64,000 nt of DNA from Chiloscyllium plagiosum (Eukaryota). The stretch's first letter is position 1. Each line of letters begins with the position of its first letter. Positions 13,336 to 49,329 of the stretch are shown here, piece after piece. The notes below the pieces were generated by a model that saw nothing but the letters and a program-made list of their open reading frames with translations, had not been told where the DNA came from and did no database searches. The DNA lies in the NCBI RefSeq assembly GCF_004010195.1, contig NC_057756.1, forward strand, positions 3,752,785 to 3,816,784, read 5' to 3'. Made by a program: the position numbers and the translations under genes.

Positions 13336-13339
13336 AAAC

Positions 13340-15030: not shown

Positions 15031-15078
15031 GAAAAATAAATGCACCAGTGACACCAGAGAAGACACTTAATTCTAAAT

Positions 15079-24994: not shown

Positions 24995-25015
24995 ATCTTA
25001 GGAAGTGCCAAATGG
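24995..25015 (+). CDS. 21-nt phase-1 heptad micro-exon, (D)LRKCQM, of a putative butyrophilin/BG-like gene
   Basis: ttattttctgtcttgcag|ATCTTAGGAAGTGCCAAATGG|gtaagt. Shares AAGTGCCAA with the 45552 exon. Confidence 0.75.
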
Positions 25016-26716
25016 GTAAGTGTAGACCTGTTTTTTCACACTATTGGGGAAAAGAAAAAGTGGTTGAAGAAATGTGTGAACATACAGTAATGTTGTCAGT
25101 ATCATGCGATCTACCCGAAACAAAAAAAAATAAAGAAAGCCGTTAAAAGAAAGATATGTTTCGCTAGCACCAATGTACTGACTCTAAATGATGGTGCTGT
25201 GTAAATTCAACAGTATATTAGAAATGATGCAAATGATTTATTTGGATGGAGACTCTTGTCACGGTATGTTGAGGTATTTCGAAGTAAAACATAATTCATT
25301 AGGTACTATATTTTCATCGAAAATTGCCTGATAGCAGATGTTGAAAAATTGCAAGATTGCATACCTGACCAGAGGTCCCGAAAATAGATGCAAAAGTCTG
25401 TCGTAGGTCACAGTCAGAAAGCAGATATTATGAGAAATTTGACAGGAGAAGCAAAATGAATTTGAAATGCATTTCAGTGGAAAATCTGATTAGAAATTTT
25501 AAACGGTATGAAAAAATTGGCAAAGTCAAAAACTACAAAGAAAATATTGAAAGGCCAATGCAAATCTTTCAGTTGGAACGAGAATTTTTCTTTTTAAATG
25601 CAATCAACAGAAAGCAGGAAGCTTTCGATTTTTACTTGATGCAAATAGCTATTAATTTATGCACGATACAGCACAAAGATGATTCAATAGACTTACATGC
25701 AGTTGAACATCATATACAAAAATTAATAGTCAAACAACACATCGGGGAAATGAAGATTTTAAATGTTGTAAGCACAACGCAATTTGCTTTTGGCAAAAAG
25801 GCTACCTTTCAATAAAAGCAAGTTGCCAATTTTAGATTATATATCGTAAGGAAAATTCATGATACACAGGTCAAGTGTTTCGATATGTAAGCATTTGTCC
25901 ATGAACTGTAGATTGGATTTGCAATATGCATGGATGTAATATCCCTGGCACAACTGACTCGACAATATACTGGTGCCAATTTTAAATGTCTAATTAGCAA
26001 TCACATGCAATCTGTAACATTCCGAAGATTTCAAGTCGTTTCAAGTTCGAACTGTATGAGGTATGACCTCAATTTCTTTTGAGATTTTCAACTTGATTTC
26101 AAACAACCTTCGGTATAGTTCAGTATCTTTTGTCCCATAATCGATCAATGGACCATTGTTTGGAGCTCTTGTCAATTTCCCCTTTCTTTTCTCTTCATTT
26201 GTTTTGTTTATATTATTCATGTTTTGACAATTGATGTGATGAAGTCAGGAAGCGAATTCAACTGACGGAAAGTAAACTAAGCAACTGTGACACGAAAGTA
26301 ATTGAGAATGTGGCAACTATTGGCACTGTCAAAAACGTATCTCACTAGTTTTGAAATAACTGAGCATTAATGGACGTGGAGATAACTGACCTCTTTGGAT
26401 CAGAAATTTTCGTAAATTGAAGTAACTTTTCTTCATCATTTTCTTAAACAAGCTGGTTGAATTCAATCCTTATATATATATAAAACTGTCTCCAGAAGAA
26501 CGATTGACTAGCAATATTGTTTAAGCACATTTCGGAGGATTGAATTCAATATATATATATATATAAATAACACACACACACATATAGTTGACGTCGCAAA
26601 CATCTATTAGCGTTTAGAGTTTTCAGGTGATAAAGTGCAAAGTAAGGCAAGTTAATGCAAATTTCGTGTGGCAATGACTGTGACCATGGAAGAATGCTAA
26701 AGTGTATTGGCCACTG

Positions 26717-27216
26717 NNNNNNNNNNNNNNNNNNNNNNNNNNNNNNNNNNNNNNNNNNNNNNNNNNNNNNNNNNNNNNNNNNNNNNNNNNNNNNNNNNNN
26801 NNNNNNNNNNNNNNNNNNNNNNNNNNNNNNNNNNNNNNNNNNNNNNNNNNNNNNNNNNNNNNNNNNNNNNNNNNNNNNNNNNNNNNNNNNNNNNNNNNNN
26901 NNNNNNNNNNNNNNNNNNNNNNNNNNNNNNNNNNNNNNNNNNNNNNNNNNNNNNNNNNNNNNNNNNNNNNNNNNNNNNNNNNNNNNNNNNNNNNNNNNNN
27001 NNNNNNNNNNNNNNNNNNNNNNNNNNNNNNNNNNNNNNNNNNNNNNNNNNNNNNNNNNNNNNNNNNNNNNNNNNNNNNNNNNNNNNNNNNNNNNNNNNNN
27101 NNNNNNNNNNNNNNNNNNNNNNNNNNNNNNNNNNNNNNNNNNNNNNNNNNNNNNNNNNNNNNNNNNNNNNNNNNNNNNNNNNNNNNNNNNNNNNNNNNNN
27201 NNNNNNNNNNNNNNNN
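26717..27216. other. Assembly gap (500 N)
   Basis: Run of N. Confidence 1.
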
Positions 27217-27709
27217 CCAAAGGCAGTTAACATTAAAAGGTAAACAAGTTATGCTGGCATTGATTGCAAGAAATTATGAAATATCACAGAAACCAAAACT
27301 ACCAAAGTTAATCCGCATTTTAGAGAAGGGCAGAATGATAAGTCCAAAACCTTAATTTTCCTTCTTTGCCTCCAGTTACTTCTGGACCCATTGACTTTGT
27401 ATTCGGTTTTCAAACTTATAGAATCCACACTGTGTTTTTGATTTGGTTAAACAGTCATTCATTTTCTAAAGAGGAGAAATGAAGATCAATGAAAACAAGT
27501 TTTTGAATACGGCTTTTAAGCATGTGTGGTAATTGACTTTTGCGAAGTTCGCTGTGTTTCTTGGGAAATCAGAAAATAATTTTTATGAGTGTCACTCTAA
27601 CAAATAATATGATCAGACAAAACAGTTTAGTGAGTGACGTCATTTTAATTGTTGAAATGGCAGAAAGTATGAACTTGTGGGAGAAGAAAAGAATTACAGA
27701 GACTAATGG

Positions 27710-28755
27710 ACCTGGTCACAGGCCTCCAGTCTGAAAAACAACCTTACACCACCACCCTTTGTCTTCTATCTTTGAGCCAGTTCTCTATTCAAATGGGTAG
27801 TTCACCCTGTATTCCGTGAAATCTAACCTTGCTCACCAGTCTCCCATGGGGACCCTTGTCGAAGGTCTTACTGAAGTCCATATAGATCACACCTACAACT
27901 CCGCACTCATAAATCCTTTTTGTTACTCCTTCAAAAAACTCAATCAAGTTTGTGAGGCATAATATCCCACACACAAAGCCATGTTAACTATCCCTAATTA
28001 GTCCTTACCTTTCCAAATACATGCCCATCTTGTCCCTCAGTATTCCCTCCAACAACTTGCCCACCACCGACGTCAGGTTCACTAGTTTATAGTTCCCTGG
28101 CTTGTACTAACCACTCTTCTTAAACAGTGGCACTCCATTAGCAAATCTCCAGTCTTCCGGCACCTCACGTGTGACTATCGATGATTTAAACATCTCAGCT
28201 AAAGGCCCAGCAATTACTTCGTTAGCTTTCCACAGAGTTTCAGGGTACACCTGATCATGTCCTGAGGATTTATCCACCTTTATGTTTTTCAAGACATCCA
28301 GCACTTCCTCCTTGGTAACACGGACATTTTTTCAAGTTGTCACCATTCTATATCTTTCATGTCCTTTTCCACAGAAAATACTGATGGAAAATACTCGTTT
28401 AGCATCTCCCCCATTTTCTACGGCTCCGCACAAAGGCCGCCTTGCTAATCTTTGTGGGGTCCTATTCTCTCCCTTGTGACCCTTTTGTCCTTAATGCATT
28501 TGTTGAAACCCTTTCGATTCTCTTTAACTCTATTTGCCAAAGCTATCTCATGTCCATGTTTGCCCTCCTGATTTCCTCTTAAGTGTACTCCTGCTGCATT
28601 TATACTCCTCCAAGGATTCACTTGATCTCTCCTGTCTATATCTGACATGTACTTCCTTCTTTTTTTTAATGAAACCCTCATTTTCCTTCATCATCCCGCA
28701 TTCCCTATACCTACCATCCTTTCCTTTCACCCTAACAGGAATGTCATGTCTCTGG
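27710..28755 (-). mobile_element. CR1/HER1 LINE internal ORF2 fragment
   Basis: CLTNLIEFFEGVTKRI...DFSKTFDKGPHGRL, VDKSSGHDQVYP...VPEDWRFANGVPLFKK. Confidence 0.9.
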
Positions 28756-28769
28756 ATTCTTGTTGTCCA

Positions 28770-29017
28770 GACAAATTCTTTTCCCTGATGTGGGTGAGTC
28801 CAGAAATAGAGGGTATAGGTTTAGGGTGAGAGGAGAAATATATAAAAGAAACCTAAGAGACAACTTTTTCACGGAGAGGGTGGTGCGTGTATGGAATGAG
28901 CTGTCAGCAGAAGTGGTGGAGGCTTGAAAAATTGCGACATTTTAACGTCTAGTCGATATAGACGGGTTGGATCGATGGGTTTTTTTTCTGTGCTGTACAT
29001 CTCTATGACTCTATGAT
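28770..29017 (+). mobile_element. CR1/HER1 3' end fragment
   Basis: gagagggtggtgcgtgtatggaatgagctg...gtgctgtacatctctatgactctatga (typical tail). Confidence 0.85.
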
Positions 29018-31249
29018 TGCAAATTTTGCAGTTGGTAAGCAATCAGTAGCATGCTGTAGCTTTTCATTCAGCACATATCAGCATTGTATGTGGATCAGTA
29101 TGTGCAGGTTTGAATATGTCAGAGCAAATTTCTGTGGCGAAAATCAATGTTGCAGTGATACCTTACCTCTACACAACATAAGAAAGAATACGATACATTG
29201 AGCCAAAATGTTTTACAGAGAATCAACAACAAAGCTGCTTTGCAAGTTGACAAAATGGCAATGCCAAATAATTTGATCAAACATTTGTAATCAATATTTT
29301 GTATCTGAACATTTTTAAATGGTTGCGGTGCCAAATATTTAAGATAATAATGAATGTATTTCCCTGGGAATTTGTAATAAAGTTTTTGTTAAAATTATGG
29401 AGGAGCTGAAAACAACAAACGTTATTGTAAAACGAAAATATCACATGAAATAGCCATTGTGCATATTTTGGTCTTCTGCCTTTTTCGATCATGCAAACAT
29501 GTTTGACACACAATAATTTTTTAAAATCATTTTCTTTCGTATAATGACTATTCAATCTCAAAACAAAAGAGGAAGGTACGTCTTAGCATTGTAAAGTTTC
29601 TTTATTCTCCTGTTCTGATAATGTATGTGACCATCCATTCATATTTTTTGATATGCATTTCTATTAATCATCAGGTAAATGAAGAAGTTATAATAAAATT
29701 CCACCTGAAAAATGCAATTATGCAGTAATATTGACTAACTTGAAGTGAGCTGTATTTTATCATTGTGGAACTAATAATTTACTGTATCACAAGTATAATA
29801 CAAAGGTATGATGTTAAAAATAACCCAACTTGGAAGCCGAAATGCACATTTTAAAAATAAACTCTCAGACAAAATTTACAACGGTATGCCGCTGTAATTT
29901 GCACACATAAGTGTCCAGACAGATAAATGTATCATGAGAACTGCTGAAAAAGCTAGCGTATCGTCATTGATAGAGTGATGCAATCTTGGGGTGGGCTAAC
30001 CAGGTATGGCAAAGTGAACCAAGGATAAAATTGTGTTATTGAGTTCGAATGAATGACTTTTCATGATCCCATTCATAACCCAGTATTCAAACTTGAAATC
30101 TTTGCTCATGACCCACAAAAAAAATCACAGTTTCTATTTTTATACTCCACTTTCTCTTCGGTCGACATAGTGCAATGGTTCACAAACAATTCACTTCTCC
30201 ATATCAAAATTGAAAAATGCATAATTTTGTACTATAATCATCAGAATTGGGTCTGTTGACAAGTATTCATGTTTAAGGAGGAATCAAAGCGTTTCTAAAC
30301 TAAGTAGACAAGAAACAAAAAAAGAATCTACCTCTTATTCGACAAGAGAATACAGGAGTAATTAAACCAACGTTGTCTGTGGAACAAAAATGAAAAGAAT
30401 TGCATCATTTACTGAGACAGACAAAGTCTGTGAGAGAAAGGGAAAAACAAAGACACAGATAGACAGGCAGAGAGAGATGCAGAGTCAGAAAGAAAAATAA
30501 GTTATCACACATTCGCCTTAAGCTGATGAAAGATGTGTGTATTGAAACTTAGATAAATAGAAAACAAAATGTATAGGGATATAACTGGAGACAAAAGTAA
30601 GAACACAAAATGTTAAAGTAAGGAACGTAATTTATTAGGCAAAGAATTAGCTAGAAAAGAAAGAGAGATGCCAATGTGAATGATCAGATCGACAGGAGTA
30701 ATCCCAGAATTATACACGACGTGACCGTTATCACTTGATAATTTGGTTATCTGCAATTCTCGTCATAACCCTTGTTTTAAACGCCTCAATATTGTAAAAT
30801 GTCAGTTTGCTATTGGAATTCTCATTCTCAGTGAAGAAATCTATCTTCCCCGTGTTAACGTCTTAAGGAAACTGAGCTCCGCCATCTTGCCGAGTTTGGC
30901 TTATGTTTATGTATTGCTTAATAAAGAAACAGCGCTAGTGAGTTATCACCTGATTTAATCGTAAGTATAAACTGTTTCTCAATGTATATATGAATTGTAA
31001 ATATTAAACTTATGAATCTTACAATATGGCACATCTCTTGCCGTTTTCTACGTAGACTCTATCTCACTGAGTGTGTAACAGGTTTAATTTTATACAATTC
31101 ATATGTACATTGATAAATAATTTATACATATGATATTCTGCTTCCAATGATCTTTTTTAGCTTTGCCTTCATGGACATCGCCTTTGTATTATCTCCATTC
31201 TGCAAAAATGACATAGGTGCAGACTATCTGTAGGTGGAAAATCAATATC

Positions 31250-31387
31250 AAAGCTTTGACAAATGGTCAGTTAGATTCGAAACGTCAGCTCTTTTCTCTC
31301 CTTACAGATACTGCCAGACCTGCTGGGATTTTCCAGCTTTTTCTCCTTTGGTTTCAGATTTCAGCATCCACAGTAATTTGCTTTTAT
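31250..31387 (+). mobile_element. PLE terminal fragment with a degenerate hammerhead
   Basis: agct-TTGACAA-atggtc..gattc-GAAA-cgtc-agct, followed by an arm related to the fold-back elements (gacctgctg...ttttccagc...cagcatc). Confidence 0.6.
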
Positions 31388-34300
31388 ATAGATATCATCA
31401 CATCTGTGTTCGAATTCGAGTGTGTACATGTTGATCAATTACAATCTACTGACAGTTTAATTTAAATACATTTCTGAACACGAAAGCCCGAACCCATTGT
31501 GAAAAGCTTCTATCAGAAAGCGGTGAGTTTTTCTTTTAATAAATTTCAGCAATCCGTTATAATGACAAATGAACTGTTTATTTGTTACGATGATAATCAG
31601 GATTCACAGAAAAATATTTCGTTGACAGCCTATCATTAAGCCATCTGACATTTTTTTTCTGTGCAGCCCAAATGCCACTTCAATTGAAGAAAAGAATAAT
31701 TTTCCAAAAGCTCATCATGATTTTCAATAAATGGTTTCGTGGTCACTCTGAGAAGTGCAGACAACATGATTATTTTTCATTTTATGAGCATGAATTGCAA
31801 TTTTGTCATCAGACTTAAGAAAGTTGGAAAATATAATTTATTTTGTTTAATTTGATACGTAATAATTGTTGTGCCATTTATTTGATTCGCCCCATTGTAG
31901 AACCCATTAAAATGGTGAAATATTACGACATTGAATGACGAAATTCTTGGGGCCAAGTCTGAATCAGCACCGTGAAAGAATAATAATTTGCATCCCAAAG
32001 TTCTGGCTTGCTGTGCGCATCAAACGTTCTGTGCCAAAAGTGCGATGCAGCAAAGAGATAACGATAGTGCAACTCCTTCAATTAAATCTGCAACAAAATA
32101 AATGAATAAAATTGATAACTCGAAATGCGATTTTGGACATACAGGAAGTATTGAACAACTGAGTGAATATTTCTGGAAAATGCTGACATGAATCCAAGCT
32201 TTTATTTTAGTAGATATTATGCGGAGGCAATTTCAAACAACAACAAAAATGCAACTGCTCAATTTTAAGTGGTGCATGATGCATCTTTTTGAAATAAAGA
32301 ACGATTTTCTGTAATTAGTTCGGTTTACTACAACAGTTCCGTTTAATGGTAGATCCAAACGTTAGTTGCTCTATTACCTAGCATACCTGGACAAAAATGG
32401 ATTTATTTGGTGAGTTGTGGTTTTACATAGAAAGACATTTGTGTGCAGGTAACAGGATGGAATGTTTAGAACAATCGAATATTTTCTCTTGATTTCAGAT
32501 TACGCTTAGGTTATCCAATCACAGACTAGTGTGAACATACCAGTAGTTAAAATTTAATCTAAAGAAAGAAGCTTACCTTATCCCTTAAAGAGTGTATAGA
32601 GCAACATCATTACAAATATTAGTTAGCCTATCAGGCGTCACGTCGTTGATTATTAAAACTACTGGCATAATTTGATCCATTTCTGCTTGACGAATGTTTA
32701 CTGGCATCTTAGAGAAATAGGAGTCACAATGGAATCCAATGAATAATGAAAAAAACTTGAGAAGATATGTTGTGACATCCATCATAGTTGGGTACCATCA
32801 CATTGGTTTACCATAATTGATCTGGACAGGGTAACCTTTAGACAACTTGTTGACATTCTGCAGAATTATGGAATGCAACACAATTCGAAAACTGGCGTGT
32901 AACAATAGAGCGAGAACATGATGCACAATCTACATTGTACAATGTAAGAAAAATGGAGTTATTGGAACTTCAGATCGGCAATGGAAGAGGATGCAAAATA
33001 TTCTGAAGTACTGAATAACTAAACAGACAATTCATAAAATTATTCACTAGTAAACATGTAGAGGCACCTTAATACTCAGAACTCGAGTGCAAAGCCAAAT
33101 TATACGTTTATTTATTTGATTTCTTCTTCTTGGGTTTCTCCTTATCATAAAGTAAATCATGAGTGTTAGCAATCAATTATTCTGAAATAATTCGTGGAAA
33201 TGAAAAATTAATAATGATGACGTTTGATGTATTAAAGTATTAATTCGGTCGTTGATAACAACAAACACTGCAAATGAGAGAAATTCATTGCATTTTTTAA
33301 TTTGTATAATATACAGACGCAGACCGATTGAAAGACATTATAAAATTAAAAGGTCAGCAATTCATGCATTTCTTCATCAATATTTCGAATAAGAGTTGGA
33401 GTTAAAATACATAGTATATTCACTGCGAAGAAAGCAAGAATGCGTTTAAACATATGTTTTAATCTTCATTTTACGATCTAGTAAAATCTGTGCAATAGTT
33501 AATTATTCATAAGACAAAGGTTCTTCGGAGTATTTGTGCATGAAACGACAAATTCTCTATTTTACTTTTTACAATAATGTGCTTGGGATTAGCAAATACC
33601 TCTGAATATTAATGTTTTCATGATGAAGAAAGGTGATTCGGCTGCATGTGCATAATAGATTTCTGAAACTGATGGGCTGAAGGTTGTTACATTATTTTCT
33701 CGTGTTTTGTTTCCATATGATGATACTGCTGTTGAAAATAACAAGATTTTGGTAGGCAATTTTCCCTCTGGTATTTCTGATACATGTTATTCAAAGTCGT
33801 GTGTTTCATATTCACTGACGACAGCACAGACCTTGAAGATTCAACACTGCAGCAACTAACAACACTGATGTTTAAATACGGCATACTATGCATGTCCAGT
33901 TGGTGCACGAAATATAACCGCAAAAGAATTTATGTCACGTCCCATATTTATCAATGTTAAACTACTGTCAGTTCTTCATTATCTTAGCCTAGCAAACATC
34001 TTTCGCTTACTCGGAAATGTTATGTATTTGAAAGGTCTTAGATATGCACATTGTGTGCAATAACTATTACATTTTAATCTCTTATTGGGTGTGATCCTCA
34101 TTTTATGCAAGATTAACTGCAATGGGATAAAAAAAATGAAGAGATTGATCCTGTTTTCTATCCTGTCGTTTTACTTTTATGACCACTCTGAGTATTCGTT
34201 ATATCATTTCTCACAAGATCACTGAAGCTTTGAACTTTTGGATCTGTCTCTCTGTTGTGTCACACAATTAACATTGTTTCAGGTCTGCGGTGTTGTTCGT

Positions 34301-35863
34301 AATGTTCATCGCTATTGTCATCCAGAGATCAATATTTTAACTCCAGTACATTAAGTTCCACTTATGAGGTTTTATTATTGAAATGCATACTTCTGATATA
34401 TTTATTCATAATATTCTGTTGTTCTTCTTGCTTAACGCTCACTGCTAAGCTCACGTCTATTTAATGGATTAACGATTTTAATCTCTGAATTGATGGTTAC
34501 GATGTCCTATCTAATTTACTCGCCACTAAGAGGTTCAAGACATACCTTTCAGAGCATATTAGGGATACACATTCAGTGTTGGCTTGAGGAATAGTCAACG
34601 CATTCCTCGAAGAATTCACAACAATATTAGTGTTTCTATCTTTTTACTTATTAGTGGGCACGTGCTGTTGTGATTGCTGACACGAAGCAACTGTTGATTG
34701 AAAGTATATAGTATTCAATAGAAATGCATAAAATGCTCATTTCAGATTACAAGCAAATAATTTATCAAATTTTGTTGAATAAATCCCTTGTGATTTTGAT
34801 AGAATGATCGGCAGCCAATTGACCACAATGCTGAAAAGGTTTGCCAGATCCTTACAATTAAAAGTGACTTACATTGGCATCGAGTGACTGAACACGCAAG
34901 TTTTGCAGAACAAGAGGGAGGACAAGTTGAAAGGCAATGTGAGAACTGCGTTCATAACTCTTAAAACATAGTCCCAGAGGTCTGGAACACATGGAAAGGC
35001 CCTTGGCCCAAAGAATCCATGCCGATCAAAATTTCTGTCCACACTAACCTCATGTCTCTGCACATGGCCCATATCTTTCTAATACTTTCGTGTCTATGTA
35101 TTTGTCCAAAAAAGCTCATTCCATCTGCTTACCCCACTCTCTGTAAAATGTTGCCCCTTAGATTCTCTTTTATTCTTTCCACTTTGTACTTATACTGATG
35201 CCGTCTATTCCAGGATTCCCAAACCGTGGGAAACACACGATGTGTATTCTCTCTTTGAATACGATCATCATCTTAAACAGTTCTATAATCTCCCCCTCTC
35301 ACTCTCCTACACGAAACAAGTCCTAGTTTGCCCACATTTTCCCTAATTCTCAGAACACTGTGTCCATGAAACAGCCATGTAAATTGCTTCTGCACTCTTT
35401 CCAAATTTAATAATATTCTTCCTATTACAAGGTGACCAAAACTGGTCACAATAATCCAAGTGCGGCCTTGACAACGTCATTTACAACATATAACATAACT
35501 TCACAAGTGCGAGACACAGTGCTCTGACTGATGAAGGCCAGTTTGCTAAAAACCTTCTTCACTGCCCTGTTTACTCATGCTTCACTTTCAGAGAGACGTG
35601 GACGTGAACTCCATGATTCTGCTGTTCCAATCCACTCCTTAAGATTTAACCATTCACCATGAAACTAACTTCTTCGAATTGACTTTCTAAAATCCAAGAC
35701 CACACAATTATCAGTGTTCAATTCCATTTGCCATTTATAAGTCCATTTTCCCAGTTGATCAAGCCTCTGGTGTGGATCCTGACTATCTTCCTCACCGTCC
35801 ATGATACCATGTATTATACCGTCATCTAGCCACTTCACAACCATGCCTTCAACATTGAATAGG

Positions 35864-36176
35864 TTAGATTAGATTCCCTCCAGTGTGGAAACAGGCCCTT
35901 CGACCCAACCAGTTCACACCGACCCTCCAAAGAGTAACCCACTGACTCATTTCCCCTCCGAATAATGCACCTAACACTATGGAAAACTTTGCATGACGAA
36001 TTCACCTGACTTAGATGCTTTCGGACTGTGGGAGGAAATCGGAGCACCCGGAGCAAACCCACGCAGACACGGGGAGAATGTGGAAACTTCGTACAGACAG
36101 TCATCCGAGCCTGAATCGTCCTGGGCCCCTGGTGCTGTGAGGCAGCAGTGCTAACCACTGAGTCACTGTTCCGCCC
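35864..36176 (-). mobile_element. HE1-type SINE, full length
   Basis: tRNA-like head with ...ctcagtggttagcactgctgcctcacagc; flanked by aatagg at 35858-35863 and 36177-36182. Confidence 0.9.
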
Positions 36177-36616
36177 AATAGGCTAGAGCAGTTTTGCCTG
36201 GAGCATCGAAGGTTGAGGGATGAACTTATGGAGCTTTATGAAATCATAAGGGGCTTCGAAAGGATAAACAGAGAAAGTATTTTCCTTGGGTGGGAGTAGG
36301 GATTTCAAAACGAGAGGGCATAGGTTTAGTGTGAGAGTGGAAAGATATAAAACGGACGTAATGGGAAATTTTTTAAAGCAGAGGGTGGTATGTGTATGGA
36401 ATGAGCTGCCAGAGGAAGTGGTGGAGACGAGTACAATTGTAACATTTAAAAGGCATCTCGTTGGGTGCATGAATCGGAAGGGTTTGGAGGGATATTACCC
36501 GAGTTCTAGGTGGGACTAGATTGGGTTGGGACACCTGGTCGGCATGGACAAGTTGGATTGATGGGTCCATTTCAGTGCTGTACGTCTCTTTGAATCTATT
36601 TTAGACTCTATGACTC
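36177..36616 (+). mobile_element. CR1/HER1 3' fragment
   Basis: KTRGHRFSVR...NFLKQRVVCVWNELPEEVVE; tail gactctatgactc. Confidence 0.9.
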
Positions 36617-37692: not shown

Positions 37693-39125
37693 CAATTCAT
37701 CAAAGAACCCGAAGGAATTTGTGAGGCACGATCTGTCACTCACGAAGCCATGCTGGCAACTCTTAATCAAATCCTGTCTTCAAACTTCGTGTTAATCACA
37801 TCTCTCAGAGTATTCTTAAGCAGCTTACACGCCACAGATGTTAAATTTAGTGGTCCCAGGTTTTTTTTCTTTGTAGTCATTGTTGAGTCATAGCAAGACT
37901 TTTGCTATCTTCCCATCTACCAGAACTTCACTCTTGGCTAACGATGACATAATAATATCAATCAGAGTCTCTTCAATTTCTTCTCTACCCTCTTGCAGTC
38001 TTCTTGGATATATTTAGTCAAGACCAGTCTCCCATAATAAATATGAATAAATATGCATTTACACTGTGCATTTAAGACATGTATTACACCTTACTGGCAA
38101 ATTGTAAGGCTTGTCATCATGAACTGACTCTTTCTCTGAATGACACAGGGATCCAAGGAGCAGGAGTTGGACCGAAAGAGATACAACTATGTGAAGAAAG
38201 GATATAAAATTCACACACTCTTTGGATTAAACAATAATTGTGGAATAGATGTTGAATAAATTTAGAAAGAATAATTTTAGAGAACACTCATTTCTCTTAA
38301 TGACGCTATCATTTTATGCATCGAATAGTCTTTGCAGTGTTGTGCATGTATTTGTGGGTTGAGGTCTTTTTGAGGCAATGAATTTTGGTTGACATTAAAA
38401 TATTGGTCCAGTATTGGTACTTTGACCAACGCCATGGACATTATTTCCCTTCCTTAAACAGAGTTAAGAACAAAGCAAATGTTGGGATCATCATTGAGAA
38501 ACCTAGTAAAACTTAATCAAGTAATGATTGCGTTTTTTGATTCACCACAATAATGGCATATCCACATCTCATTTTGCATATTAAAATAACTCACCTCGTT
38601 GATCTTAGAATTAAACATGAATATCTGCATCTTTCACTCGATCATGTGGCAATAATTTCCTGATTGTCTAAACAAAGAAATTGCGTCCATTTGCTTCGTT
38701 ATTTCTAATTCCCTAAGAGAAATTAAACGGATAGAGTAAGAGAGAGACAAAAAGAGCCTGTGCGTATGTGGGCATCAGAGGGGTTGCGGTGGGGGGGGGG
38801 TGGGGGGGGTGGGGTTGTGCTGGGGTATGGTTGGTATGTGTGAGAGAGACAGACAGACAAACAGATGGAGACATAAAAAGTGAAACACAGACACTGAGGG
38901 ATTGATCGAAGTAAAGCAGGCAGGCACAAGTTTGGGCCATTGGCATGGAAGCCAGACACCCTGCATGTGCAACTCTCGTTTGAAAACAAGGTATCTGTTG
39001 CATGCTATTTCTACATTGTTGTGAGATTTGTTATGGAGCTTGGATGTCACTCACTAATCTGATCTAATCTTCCATAAATATTTCTCTTGCTCATGCTATC
39101 ATTTACATTTTATTAACCCTGACAG

Positions 39126-39146
39126 AAATTGCACAGTGCAGAAACG
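39126..39146 (+). CDS. 21-nt phase-1 heptad micro-exon EIAQCRN
   Basis: ttttattaaccctgacag|AAATTGCACAGTGCAGAAACG|gtaggt. Confidence 0.75.
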
Positions 39147-40064
39147 GTAGGTCTTAGCATTTTGTTTATTCTTCTGGTGATGTAAATATTACAATAAGCT
39201 ACACACTACTCAATGGCAATGCACTATCTACCATTATATATATAAAAAGTGTTTCTTTCTCGGACAATGCAGATAATCAAAAACAGTAAACACTTGTCGT
39301 CCCTTACTCACTTCAACAAAGTGATTTTCTAAGCTTTGCTTTCAAGTCAACAATGTATTTTTGGATTGATGTGAATTAGGTTAAAAGTGAGTGGACATAG
39401 CATATTTCATTAGGGTCTCCACGATACTAATTCATTGACAGTTCTATACAGCTGCTCCTTTCCCATGACGAATAAATCAGCTTGTACTTTTCTGAGGTTA
39501 TTAACTGGCATGTCTTCTTACGACATTGTACCCAGAATGAAAGCTGTGTGCCTGTGCCATTCAACGATACTGTGGTCATTGGTTTAGCTCCAATTCATTT
39601 TATTTTTTTTAATCCGATAAGGTCATCTAGTTCAGATCGGTGGAAGCACAGTAGCATGTCAGGGGAAGGTGTTTTTCTAATGTAGGGACACTTTGCAATA
39701 ATTTGAGATGGAGGTCTGGCATCTGCAAAGGAAGTTCCTTTTCAGTCAATGCTTAATGCTGAATGCAGAGCAAAAAAAGACCTGCAGCAAAGAATTGTAT
39801 TATTGTTTCATGCAGTGGGATAATAATGTGACAAACAGAAAAATAAGAGGGGAGTATGTGAAAACACAAAAGTGGTTTTGGCAGTGTTAGAAGTGCTGAG
39901 TGCCAAATTATTTCAAATGTTTCGAATTTGAAGTATTTGTCTTCCTTTCTTAGGCATGCTGAATTATCTTTTACGATCACAACAACATCAAAAAAAAAAG
40001 TTTGCTTCTTTGTACGTAAGTGTGGGTTTAAAAAAAATTAAAGCTGTTCCTCTTCTTCCATCAG

Positions 40065-40085
40065 AATTGCAAGCTTACAGTGCTG
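40065..40085 (+). CDS. 21-nt phase-1 heptad micro-exon ELQAYSA
   Basis: gttcctcttcttccatcag|AATTGCAAGCTTACAGTGCTG|gtaagc. Confidence 0.8.
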
Positions 40086-40387
40086 GTAAGCATGTAACTG
40101 GTGTTTGTTGTTTAATAAATTTGGTAAATTTATTCAACGCCCATTTGTGTTATGTGTTTCAAATGCAGTGATTTTTTTGAAGTGATAAAATAGTGTGAAA
40201 AAAAGTATATTAGGATATCACTTGTTTGCTTGCAGAAGACAAATTTTTCAACTGTCATTCAATTCAGTCATATAACCAATACGAGTTTAAACTGTTCCCG
40301 CTCATAGCGCAAGAGCGAAACTGGGATGGGACACAATGAAAGCTAACGAGGGCCATAGTGGGAGAGAGAAGAAAAAAAGAAAATGTT

Positions 40388-40985
40388 AAAATTCACACAA
40401 TAATAGTTGTTGTCCAACAGATTTAATTGGATGCACTAGCTTTTGAAGTACTGTTCCTTCGTCAGGTGATTGTGGAGTGCACAATTGGAAAACACAGAAT
40501 TTATAGCAAGTGTTTACAATGTGATTTAACTGAAATTATACGTTAAAAATACTTTGATTGTTTGTTAAGTCCTCTCATCTGTTAGAACGACCATGTTGGT
40601 TTCACTTCTTTCATATGTAAATCACAAAACTTTTTTTAAAGGTCCATTCTCAGATTATCTTTAATAATTGGTGTCAGCCCAGAAAATGTGTTGAAGATGT
40701 TATCCCCCCGTGTGTTGCTGTCTGTGTCATACTAATTAGACTTATTCCAATTTTTAAAAAAATGAATTTTAAAAATCTTACTTGGATTCATGTAGCTTTT
40801 GGTCAAAGTGCAATGTAAATCTGCAAGTACAAATTCACCCCACAAACGTATATGTGTACGTGTGCATGTGGGATTGTGCGGTGGGTTGTGCGAGTGTGAG
40901 AGAGTGTATAGGTGCGTGCATGAGTGTAAAGGAGTCGAAGCCTGATGCTTGTACACCCAAATCCAACACCGGCATCTCCAATCCA
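40388..40985 (-). mobile_element. PLE-associated terminal repeat (second family) with a degenerate hammerhead
   Basis: Minus strand cac-CTGACGA-aggaacagtacttc-AAAA-gcta-gtg at about 40435-40470; paralogous to 57222-57560. Confidence 0.65.
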
Positions 40986-42119
40986 AGAAAAAGAGAGATT
41001 AAATCTTGTCAGTGAGCTTAGGCAGTTACTCCAGATGTCAAAATAAACATATTGACTTAACAGCTGACAACCAAAATTAAGTTTTAGTTCTTCTTTAATT
41101 CCCCTTTATGTAAAAAACTGCTCTGAAAATGGTGTACACGTGGCCACCGAGAATTTTGCGCGATTGCTCTAGATCACGTTAGCTTCAATCATATCTTTCT
41201 TAAGTCCATCGTTGACACAGCCTAAATACTTAATTTACGAAATGTGACTGCTTCATTGAGCAATAAGTCCAGGTAAAAATCCCTCTCCATGAAACGGCCC
41301 AACATCTGAAGCTTAGAGTCCAGCTATTCAACACTGACCTGATATTGATTGTGCTCCAATCTCTCCAGTCTACCTTGTTCAATGGTAGCTCACACATTAC
41401 TTCAAAACAATAATATCCACATGGAAAGGACAAGTCAAAATGACTTATCACTTGTTCAGTGACTGTTGATGAAGACAAACGATTCCATTAAGTATTGCTA
41501 CCACATTGAAACAGCCCAAACTAACTTTGCTTTCAATCATTGGGGATGGCTGAAGATCAGCAAGCTGATGATGTAATTTACAAACTTTTCAATTGTTTTG
41601 AATTCTCCTTCATGCGAATAAGCAAAAAAAGAAATCGATCAAATGAACTGGCTTATTGGGCAGAATATATAGCAATTTCCAGTTGTGCTGCAAGACAACT
41701 ATTTTAAAAGCTTGATGCTAAATATGCAGAGCAATCTAAAAAGAAACACGTGCCGTCAGGCAAGAAAGTAGAAATAAATATCTTCCATTGTTTATATTTG
41801 TGAATCAATGGCGGTACGGGAATCATATTTAATTGAATTTTAATAATCTCCAATCTGATCGATTGTGAAGGCAAAATTGGTAATTTGATGACGAAGGGAC
41901 ATAGATGGTCTGCTTCTCAACATGACCACAAAAAAAAATCAGGTTATTACTAGACTGAATATTGTTTGTCACGAGGGAACGATAAGGAGACGTGGTTGTA
42001 CTCAAACACCGCGATGAGAAATTAAGAATGTCGTTCGTCATGCAGTGAAAAAGCAAATAGCATATTGTTCTTTGAAGTGGGAAGATTCTATTGAAGTGGA
42101 ATGATGCCATTTTCACCTA

Positions 42120-42650
42120 TAACGGGCATTGGACAAAGTTAACCTGTGCAAATGTGTGAAGAACCGCTCTTTCTATGTGAGCATGGATGCTCTGTATATC
42201 GAGGGAATGCAACGAGGTTACACCAGACGGATTCCTGAGATGACGGAGATTGCATCAGGTACACCTACATTCACCTGAATTTTTATCATTGAAACGGAAC
42301 TCAGAGAAAACGACAACGTTTCGAACGCGAATAAAAAGGATATTCTGTTGACGTAAAGCCTAGAATCAAGGTGTCACAGATAATTGATGATGGCCAAGCC
42401 TTTTTAATGCAGAAAGGAGGAGAAATTAAAACACGTAGAGAATGGTAAGTCTCTGAAACCATCTGCTATAGATTTCTTTTTGAGTTCAAAATATTGACTA
42501 ATTTCTTGTAGGAGACAGACATAAACGGATCAAAGGATGTGAGAGAATGCTGGAACAGGATACTGAGTGGGACTATTGATCATCTGCAACAGTGCTCCAA
42601 TCCCGTGTAGCTCTATACTATGCTCCTTCTTGTGTAGTCAATATTTCTAT
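42120..42650 (+). mobile_element. Highly decayed CR1 3' fragment
   Basis: gagggaatgcaacgaggttacaccagacggattcctgag and gagaatggtaagtctctgaa resemble CR1 3' ORF2. Confidence 0.55.
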
Positions 42651-43876
42651 GCTTCCGTCTCGACACTCTTTCACGTAGCAAATTGTGACATCCAAGTGTG
42701 CAAAGAGCAAAAATAAGGTAGCGGGGAAAAAGTAACTATGAATTGCAAAGCCTTAAATTTGGACACAGACGATTAATTTTAATTAAACATATAATTGAAA
42801 AATGCTTTATGTTTCAACGATGAAATAAGGCATGCTACCACATTCTGTTTATGCTTTTAAATTTTAAATCTCATCTTTGTTTTAGTGAGGGCTGCCAGAC
42901 TAATATTAGTTTCGATAATGCCATAACAGTTTAGGATTCAATTTAGTTTACGGTATCTTACTATTCAAAATAAATATGCAATCCATCTGAAAGTCTATTT
43001 TCATTTATATGTCTCTCCAGTTAAAACTTGTAGTTTTTTAAATCACAAAAATGTTCTGCATGCCGATTACTGCAAAATAATTTGCTTACCTGATTGTAAT
43101 GTGTTTTGTCCCCTCCCTATACAAGAATCATTGAATATGTGATAGCAATATATATAATTGCAAATTAAAATTAGGAATTGCCATTTTGCGAAAGGTGAGA
43201 AATTCTGATCATTTCGATTCGAATCCGAAATTCTCAACGAGATTAATGACAGTTTAACATGCAACTACACGACTGGTGCCGTAGTACTCCACAATGAGAT
43301 TAGCTGTCGGCTGCATATTGTATAAACTTGTGAATGTCAAGATTAATCCTTGAGTGTCTGCTCTGACAGGCACAGTGATAGTACAACCAAATATTATGAA
43401 ATACTCCTGGTCATATGTCATGAATATTATTTTGTGAACAAATTTGTCATATCATTGTTGAGGATATTTATTACAGGAATGATCAAATTAATTTATTTAC
43501 ATTAAACACTTCATTTGCGAAAACTTTTGAAAGTTGCATTATTCCAGAATAAAACAAATCATAGCATAATTACAATTTCTTCATTCGCTGTTCTCCTTCT
43601 TCTACATTGATCTCGTTTTGTTTTTGTTTTCTTTCTGGAATGTGTGAGCATCAATAATAATCTTTGGAATTAATAACAATCTTGACGAATTGTCTTAAGT
43701 AAAACAAGCATACTGAATAATTTGGATTGAAAGTGTGGCTCCTCGAACTAATATGACAAAATTAGATTCGAGATTCTGTAAAGATAAAAATAATGGTTTT
43801 TGACCTATATTTGAGTTTCAGAAAAAAGAATTGACTTTGGCATTTATGTTTATCGATTTCCTTCAATGAAATACAG

Positions 43877-43897
43877 AAGTAAGAAAAGTCCAAAATG
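43877..43897 (+). CDS. 21-nt phase-1 heptad micro-exon EVRKVQN
   Basis: atttccttcaatgaaatacag|AAGTAAGAAAAGTCCAAAATG|gtaagt. Confidence 0.75.
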
Positions 43898-45551
43898 GTA
43901 AGTCAGTAAAATAAACTATTTGCATTTTACAGTGAAATTTGTCATAGATTGGTAACCAGCATCGAACTGCAGTGATTTCCGCAAGACATCTTTGAAATAG
44001 ATAGTACTGTGCAAATTCAAAGCAAGTGAGATTGCATCTTTTTGCCTCAGAATTAAGAATATTACCACTGTTGCACATGAAACATCACTTATGATTCAAA
44101 TGTTTTAGTCCACTTGACCAGTCATTTTCTGATATATTTCTGAGCAAATAGAAATGACCACTTGGCATTTGATTCAGTGGTAAGGAGATAATCATTGTAA
44201 CGGAGGAGCAATCTACACATCGATTATCAAAGAAAAACATATACAATTATTTAAAGCTCGCATTACATTGACTGCATTTTTTCGTAGTATTTTTGGTTGT
44301 TCCACATCATTTGTGTGTGGCCATGTATGCATACATAACTATGAATTTGACGGAGAAGGAACAGAATATAGAGACAGTAAACACTTAAAGCCTGGTCAAA
44401 TCCGATAGGAGAACTGAAGCGATGCATTGACGACAAATGGGCAATCTGTTTGATTGAGGGTACGATTGCTTGGAACATAGTGTACTGCGTTTCCAGAAAA
44501 TAGCTAAGCATATTGTTGTGTAAACTATTTAACTTGTTGTGGCCAGTTTTTAAATAATGCTTCAGTTTTCCATTAAAAGGAAATCTTTACTTATCGTTAT
44601 GACATTGGATCTGTGAATATTATTCATTTTAGATCATCTTTATTTTTCCTGAGAGGCAGAGTGCAAAAATTAACAAAACACAGAAACAAAATGGTGTACT
44701 GGAAGTTTGCAAACATTCTATCCAGTACTATTGTAGATGCTGAGAGTAACGGTATCAATTGTTTGCAGAATATATAAGCAAGTAGATATAATTTAAGAAT
44801 AAAATGGAATTTTGAGAGGCATTGTTATATATAGTAGACAGAGATAATACAGCATCAATTCAGCAGATCTGGCAGCAGTGAGGATGTTGTAGGATATGCA
44901 ACAACATAAGTAGATATTATGGCAATGAACTTGGTGACTTCAATTGCTGGGAATGTTCGTAGTATTTCACATCAACGCGTTTTCCTCCATTTTATTTTTT
45001 TTATTTTAAAAGAAGAATAAGCAATATTTCCATATAAATTGCCTTCATCGTCCTTAAAATTCTAAATGGCTTGTTGTAAAGTAATGAATGATAATCATCC
45101 TGCACAACATTGTGCAAAAGTCCACAAAGTAACACATCACTCAGAAAAGTTTGGTTCTCGCTTTGTTGTTGTCAAATGATTCAAAATGTACATGCTTGAA
45201 AATTCCTTATACGTAAATAAAAGGTCAAATCAAAAAAAGGAAGAAATTTATCATAAATGTCAAACTTATGTGCCGGTTATACTTTACGACTGTTAGATTC
45301 TTTTTCGTGCCGTTTTCAGTCTTTATTATTTTATGAATGATACCGTGCGTGAAATAATCAGTTTTCTGCATAATTTCGTTGCTCTGTTAATTTTCACACG
45401 AAATTATATTTCTGAATTACTCCTGATGTTGTATGATTCAATTCTTTCATAAATACTTTAGTTCATGTTTATTTGCTGACATAATGCTAAGCTAATTGAG
45501 CTAATGATTGTCATTTGAGTTCATAAATGACATTTGTCTGCCGTCCTACAG

Positions 45552-45572
45552 AATTGGCAAAGTGCCAAGATG
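45552..45572 (+). CDS. 21-nt phase-1 heptad micro-exon ELAKCQD
   Basis: tttgtctgccgtcctacag|AATTGGCAAAGTGCCAAGATG|gtaagt. Confidence 0.8.
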
Positions 45573-46209
45573 GTAAGTAGGTTAAAATATGTTTTCAGCT
45601 GAACAATTGGCAGAAATGATCAGTTTGTCTTTGGCTAATAAGTTGAAGAGATTTTTAAAGAAGATGAATGAAGATTTATAATCAAAAGTTGAATATTGAA
45701 ACAAGTAAAATGCATATCAATCTGGAAGTTATTAATTAGATCAACATGATTAAATACTGAACTTTGTTTTGATATATGGGCTACTCCGTGTGTGTGTGTG
45801 TGCATGTGCGTTTGCCTTCATATTTGTGAGAGTTTTTATGTGCATGGTGTCTCTGTGTGAATTCTGAGTCTGATGGCATACGTGTGTATGTTGCATATGC
45901 GTGATAGTGAGGAATTGCGTGTTATGAGTCCAACAGATACACAGAGACCAAAGTGTACATTGCCTGTTTCGAAATTTCTGTTCAGTATGCAAAGTTTGAC
46001 AATTAAGATTTCCTGATGCATCATGATGTCAATGAAATCACAAAGCTTTTTGGACGTTTTACGGATTGATGTCCAATATTTAAATCAAATTTTGACACAA
46101 TATTTCCCATGAGTATTATGCGGCAGGTCACGTCTTCCTATTTTCTTTGATATATGCTAAATTCTACACGATCAATAAGTTACTGAAATAATTATTTTAC
46201 TCCCTGTAG

Positions 46210-46230
46210 AACTGAAAAAGCGGAACGAAC
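46210..46230 (+). CDS. 21-nt phase-1 heptad micro-exon ELKKRNE
   Basis: attattttactccctgtag|AACTGAAAAAGCGGAACGAAC|gtaagg. Confidence 0.75.
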
Positions 46231-47487
46231 GTAAGGCCATGTCAAATTATTTTCATTTATTTATTTTGTGTGAAATTGGACGAAGTCAATCATGGATGCC
46301 ACTTATTGATTTGCGTAAACTAGCTGAATAATACGCTCAAATTTCCACCCAAATGAGAAGCGTCACAATTAGTTCACCTCTGATATAAATATCCCCGCAT
46401 TCGTGATGATCTTCTAAAAATTAAACATTGTTATTAAAACTGTACCATATTGTCTGAATGTGAAGAAACGTGTCAGTGAAAGGGAGAGAGAGAGATAAAC
46501 ATCAAGGCAGAGTGTGCTTCATGTGACATTAAATCATTGTCGCCACTGAATATCTATTAAATATTCCTGCATATATGCATCATGTCCATGTTCACACGTT
46601 CTTTTCATAGAGATCAAAATTTCAGTGGGTCACAAAATCTGACATTTTCTGTGAAAACCAGAATAATGAAAAATACAAATTGCTTCCTTACACAATTGTT
46701 ATTCACTCAAGGCATGTGACTCTGTCTGCCTCAGGCGTCACATATGTAAATGATGTTCCCCATGGTTGTTTCAACGTAAATCACATAATGTTGTGGTTGG
46801 TTTCAAATGTAGGAATGACGAAATCTAGAAGACACATTTTCATTCATAATATTTATTGGGACGTTAGATTTTATCCACTCACTTATGCGTCTGTCTACTT
46901 GCTTGCTTTTTTTTTAATTGAATGCTTACTACATTGATCTCTGTACTTATTTTAACTAAGGAGTAATACTAAAGACATTTTCACACGGTCCATAGTGAGA
47001 TTCGAAACACCAAATTTCAAAATTCCCTTGATTCACTGACTTGCTTATTGACGTTCCATCCCTCAGTGATTCTGATGTGTACAAGTATTACTATCAGTGA
47101 CGTTTCATCTAGGTTTGAGCTGTTAATCCTGTATTTTTTGAAGTAAATATTAAGTCATTATACAAATATTTTGCTGATCCATGTAGCCATTGTCTTTGGA
47201 TCCATAATGTTTAACACTTCCGGAGAAGAAAGTGACTTGAAGTATACTGCTACATTGGGAATGAATTTTCGTACAGGACACATGATTCAGTATGAAGAAC
47301 AAATGTGCATCCAATGAAAATACACAATTCAAGCACAGAATGTTTTTTCAAATTTTAATGCATTGAAAGCCTGGAAAAAAAATGTTGGGTATTCAATGGT
47401 ATTCAGTGGTCAACAATGTCTCAGCGACCAGAAATACTGGCAAAAGATTGTTAAACTTTCTTTGAATTAACTCAGTAACCAATAAGC

Positions 47488-47491
<4 letters not shown>

Positions 47492-47538
<47 letters not shown>
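47492..47538. repeat. (TA)n microsatellite
   Basis: Directly visible. Confidence 0.95.
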
Positions 47539-47542
<4 letters not shown>

Positions 47543-49180
47543 ATTATGATCGGTTCCATTATATTGGTGCCAGGATTACAAGGGATCATATTCTGTCACG
47601 CACTTCTCCTTTGTTCTGCACCTAACAGTGCACAGTATTATTTTACTTCTTTTCAAATGGCTGTCTAGTTATTTGTTGCACACGTTGGTTGCCCTGCATC
47701 GTTCAGACGGTCAGTTTTTACATTCCAGACCTTTACCACCCACAGACTGCAAAACCACTTCCCCAATTTGCTTTACTTTCTTTTGTTTATACACTCATGA
47801 GTGGGAACAGCTGCTTCATTAAACTCTATCCAGAGCGCGCCAGAATTTTAGTGTTTCAATCATGTTTCCTGCAGCCCTTCTTTTCTAATTCATGTAGCTC
47901 AAACTCATCTTTACTCGCTTTCCTTATAATTCAGATGGCTCACCAAAAGATGAAATTCCACAAATGTTAAATTTGTTCACTGTAACCCATGCATAGTTCA
48001 TTACTCTACGTCACGAAAATCCAATCAAACACTAATTGTCCACAGTTAAACGCACTACACAAACATCACCATTCTTTACAATTCAGTATTAACAGTAATT
48101 TTAATTATCCTGAGCATCAACCGAAATAACTCCAAACATGTTTTTGCTAAGTGTGATTTTTTTTTACACAAATCTATGGTTCACTTTCACTTACTCCGTG
48201 TAAGCAATACTATCAGCCTTCAAGATCTGGAGAACAAAGATGGGACGTAACATAGCTCTATAGAAGCTGGAGAACTTCGTGAAAATATCATAATATCTCA
48301 AAAAAGTCCATTTTCGACAGAAGGCGATGCTGGAAGTCATAAAACACTTGAACGTGAATTAACCCCTAGGACGGGATCACGTGTACCCGAGAAAATTGTA
48401 GGAAGCTGGAGAAACGATTGCTCGGATCGTTGCTGAAATGTAGGTGTCATCAGTAGCCATGGATGCGGTGCTGGAAGAGTACAATGCCAAAAGAAAAATA
48501 CAATCACCTTATTGATAAATGTTGATATAAATTGGTACCTAGAGTATTGCGAACTTCTGAGATCTGTATCTATTTTATTCACATGCTGTCGGTAAAACAC
48601 CAGTTCATATATTTATATCAAAATGGATCGTTTGTTGACTTTTGTTTGAGAACGCATTTCAGGGGGTCTTTCCTTGTTTAGCTGATTCAAAAGGATCATT
48701 CTTTTGGCAAAACAGCATTAGTGATCAACATATTTTTCTTCCTTCAATATTGACAATGCTTTCATGGTCAGATTAGGTCTTAAAATACAGATTGTTTATG
48801 GAATTGAACTTTTATCATAGTCTAAGGCGAGATTTGAACCCTGGGCGTCAGAACATTTTCTTAGCGCAATTTCTAAGTTAAATACGAGCAAACACCTTTG
48901 TTTTTGTTACTGGGAAAACCAAGCTTTATTTTAAATGATGCAGCCGGATAATTTGATATCAACGACTAAGATGTTCAATGCCAATGAATGAAATTAAGCT
49001 ACACAGGTATTATTAGCGCAACAGTTTTAATTTTTTTGCTTATGATTTGGCATTGACCTTATGTATGGAACAGTTTGTAAGTTGTATCTGAGAATCAATA
49101 CGCTGGCATTCTTTCAGCAGCCTCTGAGCGACATGAAACGAAAAATCATCGAAAGCCTGGTGGATTGATTAAACTGACAA

Positions 49181-49182
<2 letters not shown>

Positions 49183-49226
<44 letters not shown>

Positions 49227-49242
49227 ACACACACACAAACAC
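49183..49242. repeat. (TC)n-(CA)n compound microsatellite
   Basis: Directly visible. Confidence 0.95.
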
Positions 49243-49296
49243 GCATTTGTCGTTCTGCTTTTTGGTTTGACTCATGAAATCTTTTTGGTTTTGCAG

Positions 49297-49329
49297 GCTT
49301 AAAGTGTTACCAAGATTTAAAGAAGATGG
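49297..49329 (+). CDS. 33-nt phase-1 exon (R)LKCYQDLKKM
   Basis: ctttttggttttgcag|GCTTAAAGTGTTACCAAGATTTAAAGAAGATGG|gtgaga; in frame with the heptad exons. Confidence 0.7.

Follow-up and report, generated by a model that had tools for sequence, protein, structure and literature searches.

The window considered here is a stretch of 64,000 nt from the genome of the shark Chiloscyllium plagiosum (RefSeq assembly GCF_004010195.1), corresponding to positions 3,752,785 to 3,816,784 of the forward strand of contig NC_057756.1 (C47). An earlier note on this DNA had proposed that it conceals a gene built from micro-exons of 21 nt, each encoding one heptad of a coiled coil. Six segments of 21 nt and one of 33 nt are found on the + strand at the positions claimed for them (Table 1; coordinates are those of the window, negative upstream of its start, unless given on C47). 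All seven are bordered, as described, by (C/T)AG acceptors and by GTAAG, GTAGG, or GTGAG donors, and most are preceded by a pyrimidine-rich stretch. Read from the third base, none of the seven contains a stop, which bears out the phase-1 frame that had been asserted, and translation reproduces the peptides LRKCQM, IAQCRN, LQAYSA, VRKVQN, LAKCQD, LKKRNE, and LKCYQDLKKM. The codons split across the junctions of the window are GAA (E) five times and CGC (R) ahead of the 33-nt exon; the candidate exon preceding 24995, at -3878, ends in G and supplies GAT (D). With its 11 residues, the 33-nt exon ends the strict heptad run and marks a switch to longer exons downstream. We hold, at a probability of about 0.6, that the seven segments are internal coding exons of a single shark gene that is very large, present in one copy, and encoded on the + strand.

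The exons had been placed outside transposable elements, and their surroundings are indeed single-copy. Each of the stretches 24800-25200, 39000-40200, and 45300-45800 is unique in the 3.56-Gb assembly, and the bin holding the exon at 43877 has single-copy depth in a DNA sequencing run (X1). The 80-nt flanks of the exons are mutually unrelated apart from the splice sites, and because the surrounding DNA is also single-copy, the exons are not copies or pieces of a repeat. A profile of the six exon bodies found zero further copies within the window. An assembly gap of 500 N (26717-27216) lies in the 14-kb intron between the exons at 24995 and 39126, and further exons could hide in it; a single N stands at 62162. 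A 15-nt candidate at 26627, 76 nt before this gap, would disrupt the heptad spacing and is without other support, and a 21-nt candidate at 4042 begins and ends with T and has a low family-profile score.

Strand, Length, and Frame of the Segments

Within the window, a search for AG-N21-GTRRG with at least 60% pyrimidines upstream gives seven matches on the + strand and one on the - strand, and the same filter applied to lengths of 12-60 other than 21 gives 0-5 on +. Two of the seven (4042 and 57300) are absent from the original set, and the exon at 43877 falls below the pyrimidine cut (0.53). The tighter pattern YAG-A-N-N-T-N17-GTRRG returns exactly the six 21-nt exons, all on +. Shuffles of this search give 0.81 matches on expectation and three at most, with 0/100 reaching six, a comparison that is partly circular because the pattern was composed after the exons were known.

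Over 334 kb, a frame-independent filter (YAG acceptor, at least 60% pyrimidines, donor score of at least 6.5) retains 21 segments of 21 nt on + and one on -, and every other length from 12 to 45 gives 0-7. The assertion that the - strand carries no comparable set is upheld. Phase 1 is open in 21/21 of the filtered + segments, the other two frames in 12/21 and 16/21, and L, I, or V occupies codon 2 in 17/21. When the filter is relaxed, the counts become 40 for + and 7 for -.

The simplest alternative, a chance arrangement of splice-like motifs, has in its favor only that AG and GT are common. Against it stand the imbalance between strands and between lengths, the shuffles, none of which reaches the count observed in the window, and the gathering of genome-wide matches on one strand of a single 0.4-Mb interval (see below). 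The strand and length counts together with this clustering already rule chance out.

Extent of the Array

Flanking sequence was read for 170 kb upstream and 100 kb downstream of the window, together with 20 kb at C47:3.381-3.401 Mb. The window proves to be the middle of a larger array that extends far past both of its sides, and the label of a 'tail' in the earlier note does not suit an array of at least 417 kb, which is not short. The putative gene spans at least C47:3,385,223-3,802,113, and the array is still running in the most upstream sequence read (C47:3.381-3.401 Mb). Past the 33-nt exon, the search turned up no more 21-nt exons of the family type; from there, phase 1-1 candidates of 24-36 nt that encode charged, helix-like peptides reach window position 161515 (C47:3,914,299), and those of 27-36 nt number 15 on + against 2 on - when the frame filter is applied. 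The gene probably extends to 3,914,299, a length of about 529 kb. At least about 27 heptad exons have been seen, with 182 kb of the array (C47:3,401,200-3,582,784) unread; if the spacing seen so far, roughly one exon every 9 kb, holds throughout, there may be 40-50 exons of 21 nt in all. Apparent introns range from 637 to 30,800 nt, and the largest coding exon seen is 36 nt.

Three degenerate motifs were searched in the entire 3.56-Gb assembly, with reversed patterns as controls. Ten of 108 matches to the first (control 47), 8 of 14 to the second (control 12), and 10 of 39 to the third (control 60) fall on the + strand of C47 at 3,401,129-3,798,333. No second cluster of such exons appeared in these searches. 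This distribution argues for one single-copy gene, neither a short tail nor a multigene family. The only two further family-like matches, DLKNCKE and DLSKYQE, lie on the + strand at C47:2,301,251 and 2,399,425. They share the splice sites of the family but stand 1.0-1.1 Mb upstream of the array, and the interval between holds zero motif matches. These lone 21-nt segments may represent a paralogue or a distant part of the locus.

Table 1. Candidate exons and related features at the locus (window coordinates, negative upstream of the window start, unless given on C47).
Feature	Position	Strand	Basis or remarks
Whole window, within the putative gene	1..64000	+	nearest outer candidates at -3878 (DLKHFKE) and +70767 (30 nt, LKKCRKYKV)
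21-nt phase 1-1 micro-exon (D)LRKCQM	24995..25015	+	acceptor ttgcag, donor gtaagt, open from base 3
21-nt phase 1-1 micro-exon EIAQCRN	39126..39146	+	splice sites, frame, motif pattern
21-nt phase 1-1 micro-exon ELQAYSA	40065..40085	+	highest pyrimidine tract of the set (0.84)
21-nt phase 1-1 micro-exon EVRKVQN	43877..43897	+	lowest pyrimidine tract (0.53), gtaagt donor
21-nt phase 1-1 micro-exon ELAKCQD	45552..45572	+	nearest the family consensus, leave-one-out score 18.3
21-nt phase 1-1 micro-exon ELKKRNE	46210..46230	+	last base C, next split codon CGC = R
33-nt phase 1-1 exon (R)LKCYQDLKKM	49297..49329	+	acceptor ttttgcag, donor gtgaga
Uncertain 15-nt phase 1-1 candidate DKVQ	26627..26641	+	ttttcag acceptor, gtaagg donor, AAAGTGCAAA family-like
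Uncertain 21-nt candidate LQHEAC	4042..4062	+	pyrimidine tract 0.74, gtgagt donor, phase-1 open
New 21-nt member ELQTCQR	-161371	+	
New 21-nt member ELEHCRK	-160157	+	
New 21-nt member ELANLQK	-158956	+	
New 21-nt member ELAKCKV	-138571	+	
New 21-nt member ELTHCQA	-134302	+	
New 21-nt member EIEKYKQ	-94280	+	
New 21-nt member DLVKCKG	-47703	+	
New 21-nt member DLTACQL	-20798	+	
New 21-nt member DLKHFKE	-3878	+	
Further array candidates	C47:3,385,223 and 3,394,701	+	20 kb at 3.381-3.401 Mb
Terminal B30.2 (PRY-SPRY) exon, phase-1 acceptor	C47:4,577,499-4,578,019	+	SPRY match at 4,577,660

Heptad Anatomy and Apparent Selection on the Protein

Residue statistics were compiled from 20 hand-picked exons. 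Codon 2 is Leu in 15, Val in three, and Ile in two, and position 5 is Cys in nine, Tyr in four, Leu in two, and Phe, Val, Ala, Lys, or Arg in one each. Position 6 is Gln in seven, Lys in five, Arg in three, and another residue in five, and codons 4 and 7 hold mainly K/H/T/N/Q and an assortment of polar residues. The a/d coiled-coil pattern that had been read from the six heptads of the window, with hydrophobic residues, Cys, or Tyr at codons 2 and 5, therefore recurs across the larger set. The register suggested by these residues places Leu at a, Cys or Tyr at d, Gln, Lys, or Arg at e, and Glu or Asp at g, which would be the classical pattern of a parallel dimer. The first base of the exon is A in 20/20 (AA 11, AT 5, AG 3, AC 1) and the last is G in 18/20, and consequently the split codon is Glu or Asp in 19/20.

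At codon 2, Leu is spelled CTG, CTT, CTA, or TTG, and Cys appears as TGC or TGT; since synonymous codons vary at the Leu and Cys positions, conservation acts at the level of the protein. The flanking introns have diverged beyond recognition while exon length, splice sites, and the heptad pattern persist. Together these features point to selection on the protein, as judged from the exon sequences.

Transcript Data

Reads were mapped to positions 43850-63849 from two single-cell polyA runs, X5 (about 2% read) and X6 (about 6% read), from a small run guessed to be RNA (X7), and from DNA run X1. None of the X6 reads was placed on this interval, and X5 reads fell only in repeat bins at about 49.2-49.9, 54.5-55.2, 57.2-58.5, and 61.9-62.5 kb. 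No splice joints at the micro-exons were present in the mapped runs, a result without bearing either way, as these runs are skewed to 3' ends, were sampled thinly, and are unable to anchor pieces of 21 nt.

Very high-copy short repeats occur at 62057-62240 and in bins 49186-49852, 54522-55188, and 57190-57856, with depths in the millions in the DNA run. Such bins attract single-cell RNA reads and X7 contigs. The repeat at 62057-62240 looks SINE-like (short interspersed nuclear element) and has sharp ends.

A relic would be one way to account for an array for which no RNA support was obtained: a compact heptad gene could have been inflated by transposons and no longer be expressed as protein, or the segments could be exons of a long non-coding RNA. 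The introns are full of fragments of long interspersed nuclear elements (LINEs), and the extreme length of the gene, the ends of which were not found, would suit such an origin. Decay or non-coding function is nevertheless hard to reconcile with phase-1 openness and strong splice sites in 21/21 segments despite diverged flanks, or with the synonymous codon variety at Leu and Cys that argues for selection on the protein. We consider this explanation distinctly unlikely.

Domain Searches and a Distant B30.2 Exon

Pfam domains were sought in the translated open reading frames (ORFs) of the region. On the + strand of the window, the scan covered 157/160 ORFs of at least 60 amino acids (the other three lie in the N gap) and, among those of 33-59 amino acids, 150/150 upstream of 24995 and 97/99 downstream of 49330; 144 + ORFs of 33-59 amino acids at 24.9-49.5 kb were outside the scan. 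In the first 200 kb of the flanks, 243/245 + ORFs of at least 75 amino acids were scanned, and in the remaining 90 kb 129 of at least 70 amino acids. On the - strand of the window, 90/156 ORFs were scanned. The scanned + ORFs of 354 kb (the window, 170 kb upstream, 100 kb downstream, and C47:3.381-3.401 Mb) contained no match to V-set, C2-set, SPRY, PRY, or a lectin domain. The domains recognized in them were all of transposon type (reverse transcriptase, endonuclease, RNase H, GIY-YIG, and a GDSL esterase beside LINE domains), plus a few sub-threshold chance matches. Two weak matches were set aside. A ZW10_C match at 55404-55544 (+), in a low-complexity ORF of 47 amino acids, is probably due to chance (E 9e-4; its 19.6 bits fall short of the cut-off, 25.8), and an XG_FTase match at 54548-54745 was likewise judged to be chance.

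These scans bear on the possibility that some other membrane or secreted protein, such as a type II lectin-like receptor or a matrix protein, uses the array as its extracellular neck or stalk, with its chains linked by a ladder of disulfides between the d-position Cys. In parallel dimers, position d is well placed for disulfides between helices, and CD23-type stalks consist of repeated heptad-coding exons. In the shark array, Cys is found at d in 9/20 heptads. Conversely, no Lectin_C or other ectodomain match occurs in + ORFs of at least 33 amino acids at 49.5-64 kb or of at least 75 amino acids over the next 100 kb, though short lectin exons beyond the window could escape such a scan. No transmembrane (TM) or signal exon was identified either, TM exons having no Pfam model and not having been searched systematically. 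A stalk is quite improbable.

The earlier note had assigned the array to the cytoplasmic tail of a receptor of the butyrophilin (BTN) or chicken BG type. Such a type I receptor would carry the array as its cytoplasmic heptads, with leader, immunoglobulin (Ig) V or IgV and IgC, and TM exons upstream of C47:3.385 Mb, and its last exon would be the solitary B30.2 exon of Table 1, unless the gene lacks B30.2 altogether, as BG genes do. Phase 1-1 is the usual exon phase of the Ig superfamily, which counts in favor of this assignment. TRIM and BTN genes alike have a B30.2 acceptor in phase 1, which therefore does not discriminate between them. The B30.2 exon contains the only SPRY match on C47 among 150 scored, and no B-box exon was found on C47 among 150 scored of 312 candidates. 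Since its phase fits and its strand is that of the array, the B30.2 exon might conceivably be the last of the chain, a lead rather than evidence. It lies, however, 663 kb past the last candidate exon and 775 kb past the 33-nt exon, and no SPRY or PRY was found in the scanned + ORFs within 114.7 kb downstream of the latter. Its best named relatives are TRIM/bloodthirsty proteins (27-35% identity) and a B30.2-only model of 178 amino acids from Chiloscyllium punctatum (59%). Most of the 150 listed SPRY matches and most B-box matches fall at 9-34 Mb of another contig (C37), which suggests a very large TRIM/B30.2 cluster there.

C47 bears 12/145 of the genome's matches to C2-set_2, the B7/BTN/nectin-type domain, but all of them lie at 5.69-10.21 Mb, past the B30.2 exon, and no V-set was found near the locus among 150 scored of 1319 genome-wide candidates. 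In favor of the assignment are the accounts of BG genes, which describe one heptad per phase-1 21-nt exon (PMC5938342, PMC4046983), and a report of heptad-bearing BTNs in cartilaginous fishes (PMC12841164). Against it, no Ig or SPRY exon appears in the scanned 354 kb, the exons form a single locus and not a family, and the hydrophobic codons are 2 and 5 as opposed to 4 and 7 in BG as described (PMC5938342). As the sequence read stops short of both gene ends, an Ig/TM head may still lie further upstream; the assignment is left unproven rather than refuted, and we hold a BTN/BG receptor to be unlikely.

The Proposed Gene and its Working

The proposal of a hidden protein-coding gene composed of phase-1 21-nt exons, one heptad each, is supported by the exon anatomy and by the open frame of all 21 filtered segments. 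A hidden coiled-coil micro-exon gene is about as probable as the reading given at the outset, and very probable once the BTN/BG and stalk readings, which also imply a real gene, are added in. Spliced and translated, the array would yield a long, continuous alpha-helical coiled-coil rod, probably a parallel dimer, and the 24-36-nt phase 1-1 exons that follow the 33-nt exon would also read as charged helix. Every exon is predicted to act as a symmetric cassette of one heptad, in which the G before the GT of the donor and the first base A of the next exon write the acidic residue at g. Any two cassettes would give the same junction, because this G and this A encode the acidic split codon. Skipping or duplicating any exon would then keep both the frame and the heptad register, since the exons are symmetric, hold one heptad each, and share the acidic split codon. 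The array may have grown by exon duplication, and exon skipping would shorten the rod by exact heptads, such that splicing could tune its length. For the Cys ladder at position d to link the chains by disulfides, the rod would have to be extracellular.

Several points weigh against such a gene. No RNA run was found among the sequencing runs that match 39400-49399, which are four of DNA type from one study. The 20 exons behind the residue statistics were picked to have Glu, Asp, or Asn at position 1 and L, I, or V at position 2, which leaves positions 3-7 alone unbiased, and conservation was judged from paralogous exons of one genome, not across species. The splice-site weights were entered from general knowledge and not from a trained model. 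The downstream candidates are less secure, numbering 21 on + against 13 on - when the frame filter is lifted. Introns of up to 31 kb around exons of 21 nt are demanding for splicing, and neither gene end, start codon, stop codon, nor recognizable domain was found in the sequence read.

More tentative, at somewhat under an even chance, is the full picture of a single-copy shark gene of at least half a megabase, with some 40-50 interchangeable 21-nt phase-1 exons that share the acidic split codon and have Leu at a and Cys or Tyr at d, a one-heptad-per-exon design independent of avian BG, a rod tunable by splicing, and a possible disulfide ladder.

Other Features of the Region

A LINE remnant lies on the - strand of the window, with a reverse transcriptase ORF at 19251-19910 (RVT_1, E 2.6e-22) and a weak endonuclease match at 21282-21701. 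It is adjoined by a 105-nt tandem repeat of 2.6 copies at 21983-22254. From about 8000 to 16000, the window contains a G-rich block unlike the rest, with a GC content of up to 0.49 and a GC skew of up to +0.34. Its many overlapping - strand ORFs gave no Pfam match, and the block is perhaps an unclassified repeat. Elsewhere in an intron of the putative gene (L026:6762-9999, +), an ORF resembling a GDSL esterase (E 6e-13) directly precedes endonuclease and reverse transcriptase ORFs, an arrangement that looks like a LINE with an esterase ORF1.

Significance

The design in which one exon equals one heptad has so far been a curiosity of chicken BG genes and of short BTN linkers. In the collection of papers searched, no description of such an array in cartilaginous fish was found, and some of the searches returned only the work on chicken BG and BTN. 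If the shark array is expressed, this architecture exists in cartilaginous fish at a far larger scale, and it would be either as old as jawed vertebrates or invented more than once, the different register suggesting the latter. If it did arise twice, the modularity would seem to be what selection favors, as frame and register survive the gain or skipping of exons. Should the independent design hold, the array would be the largest of micro-exons described in a vertebrate. The locus clearly exemplifies, too, how a gene can escape annotation that relies on ORFs, and its 21-nt exons within introns of 10-30 kb would provide a stringent natural test of micro-exon definition.

Comparison with Known Systems

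The stalk of CD23 (FCER2) resembles the shark array in being a coiled coil grown by the duplication of whole-heptad exons. Its exons encode 21 residues (three heptads) and number three or four, and CD23 has a lectin domain, whereas none was found in the scanned ORFs of the shark locus. The micro-exon genes of Schistosoma consist of symmetric micro-exons almost throughout, so that skipping keeps the frame. They share this build with the shark array but are unrelated to it in sequence and lineage, and their products are short secreted peptides without a heptad design.

In MOG and ERMAP, 21-nt phase-1 heptad exons follow the TM exon. BTN and BTNL genes are likewise described with heptad exons of this kind after the TM exon (PMC8813856, PMC12841164), and in this they and the shark array are alike. 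BTNs are reported to have an IgV-IgC-TM arrangement followed by few heptads and B30.2 (PMC8813856, PMC12841164), whereas the shark array holds dozens of heptads, and the scans revealed neither Ig exons nor, within 115 kb, a B30.2 exon.

The difference in scale from BG is large, as shark introns run from 0.6 to 31 kb and the gene would occupy at least 0.42 Mb. BG genes, by contrast, are compact. As described, a BG gene comprises a leader, one IgV, a TM exon, 27-37 heptad exons that measure 21 nt apart from a few of 18 or 24 nt, and an exon for the 3' untranslated region, and one haplotype contains 14 such genes (PMC5938342, PMC4046983, PMC8813856). There are likenesses in other respects: both have many one-heptad exons of 21 nt in phase 1 and a predicted dimeric coiled coil (PMC5938342, PMC4046983), both have a few exons that depart from 21 nt, and in both the number of exons can change without loss of frame. 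The resemblance in phase that the earlier note had drawn is sound, as each 21-nt exon of BG supplies the last two bases of its first codon and the exon before it the first base (PMC5938342), the same 1+2 split as in the shark array. In number, the 27-37 heptad exons of BG compare with at least about 27 seen in the shark. BG genes as described have IgV and TM exons directly upstream, whereas none was found in the shark sequence scanned, and they form a multigene family, whereas the motif searches find a single shark locus. Their split codon varies with the previous exon, unlike the Glu or Asp seen in 19/20 shark exons, and their hydrophobic stripe occupies the fourth and last (seventh) codons of each exon (PMC5938342), as opposed to codons 2 and 5. 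Because a register shift of two codons is unexpected under a common ancestral 21-nt exon, an independent origin or a very distant relation is likelier for the shark array than orthology with BG.

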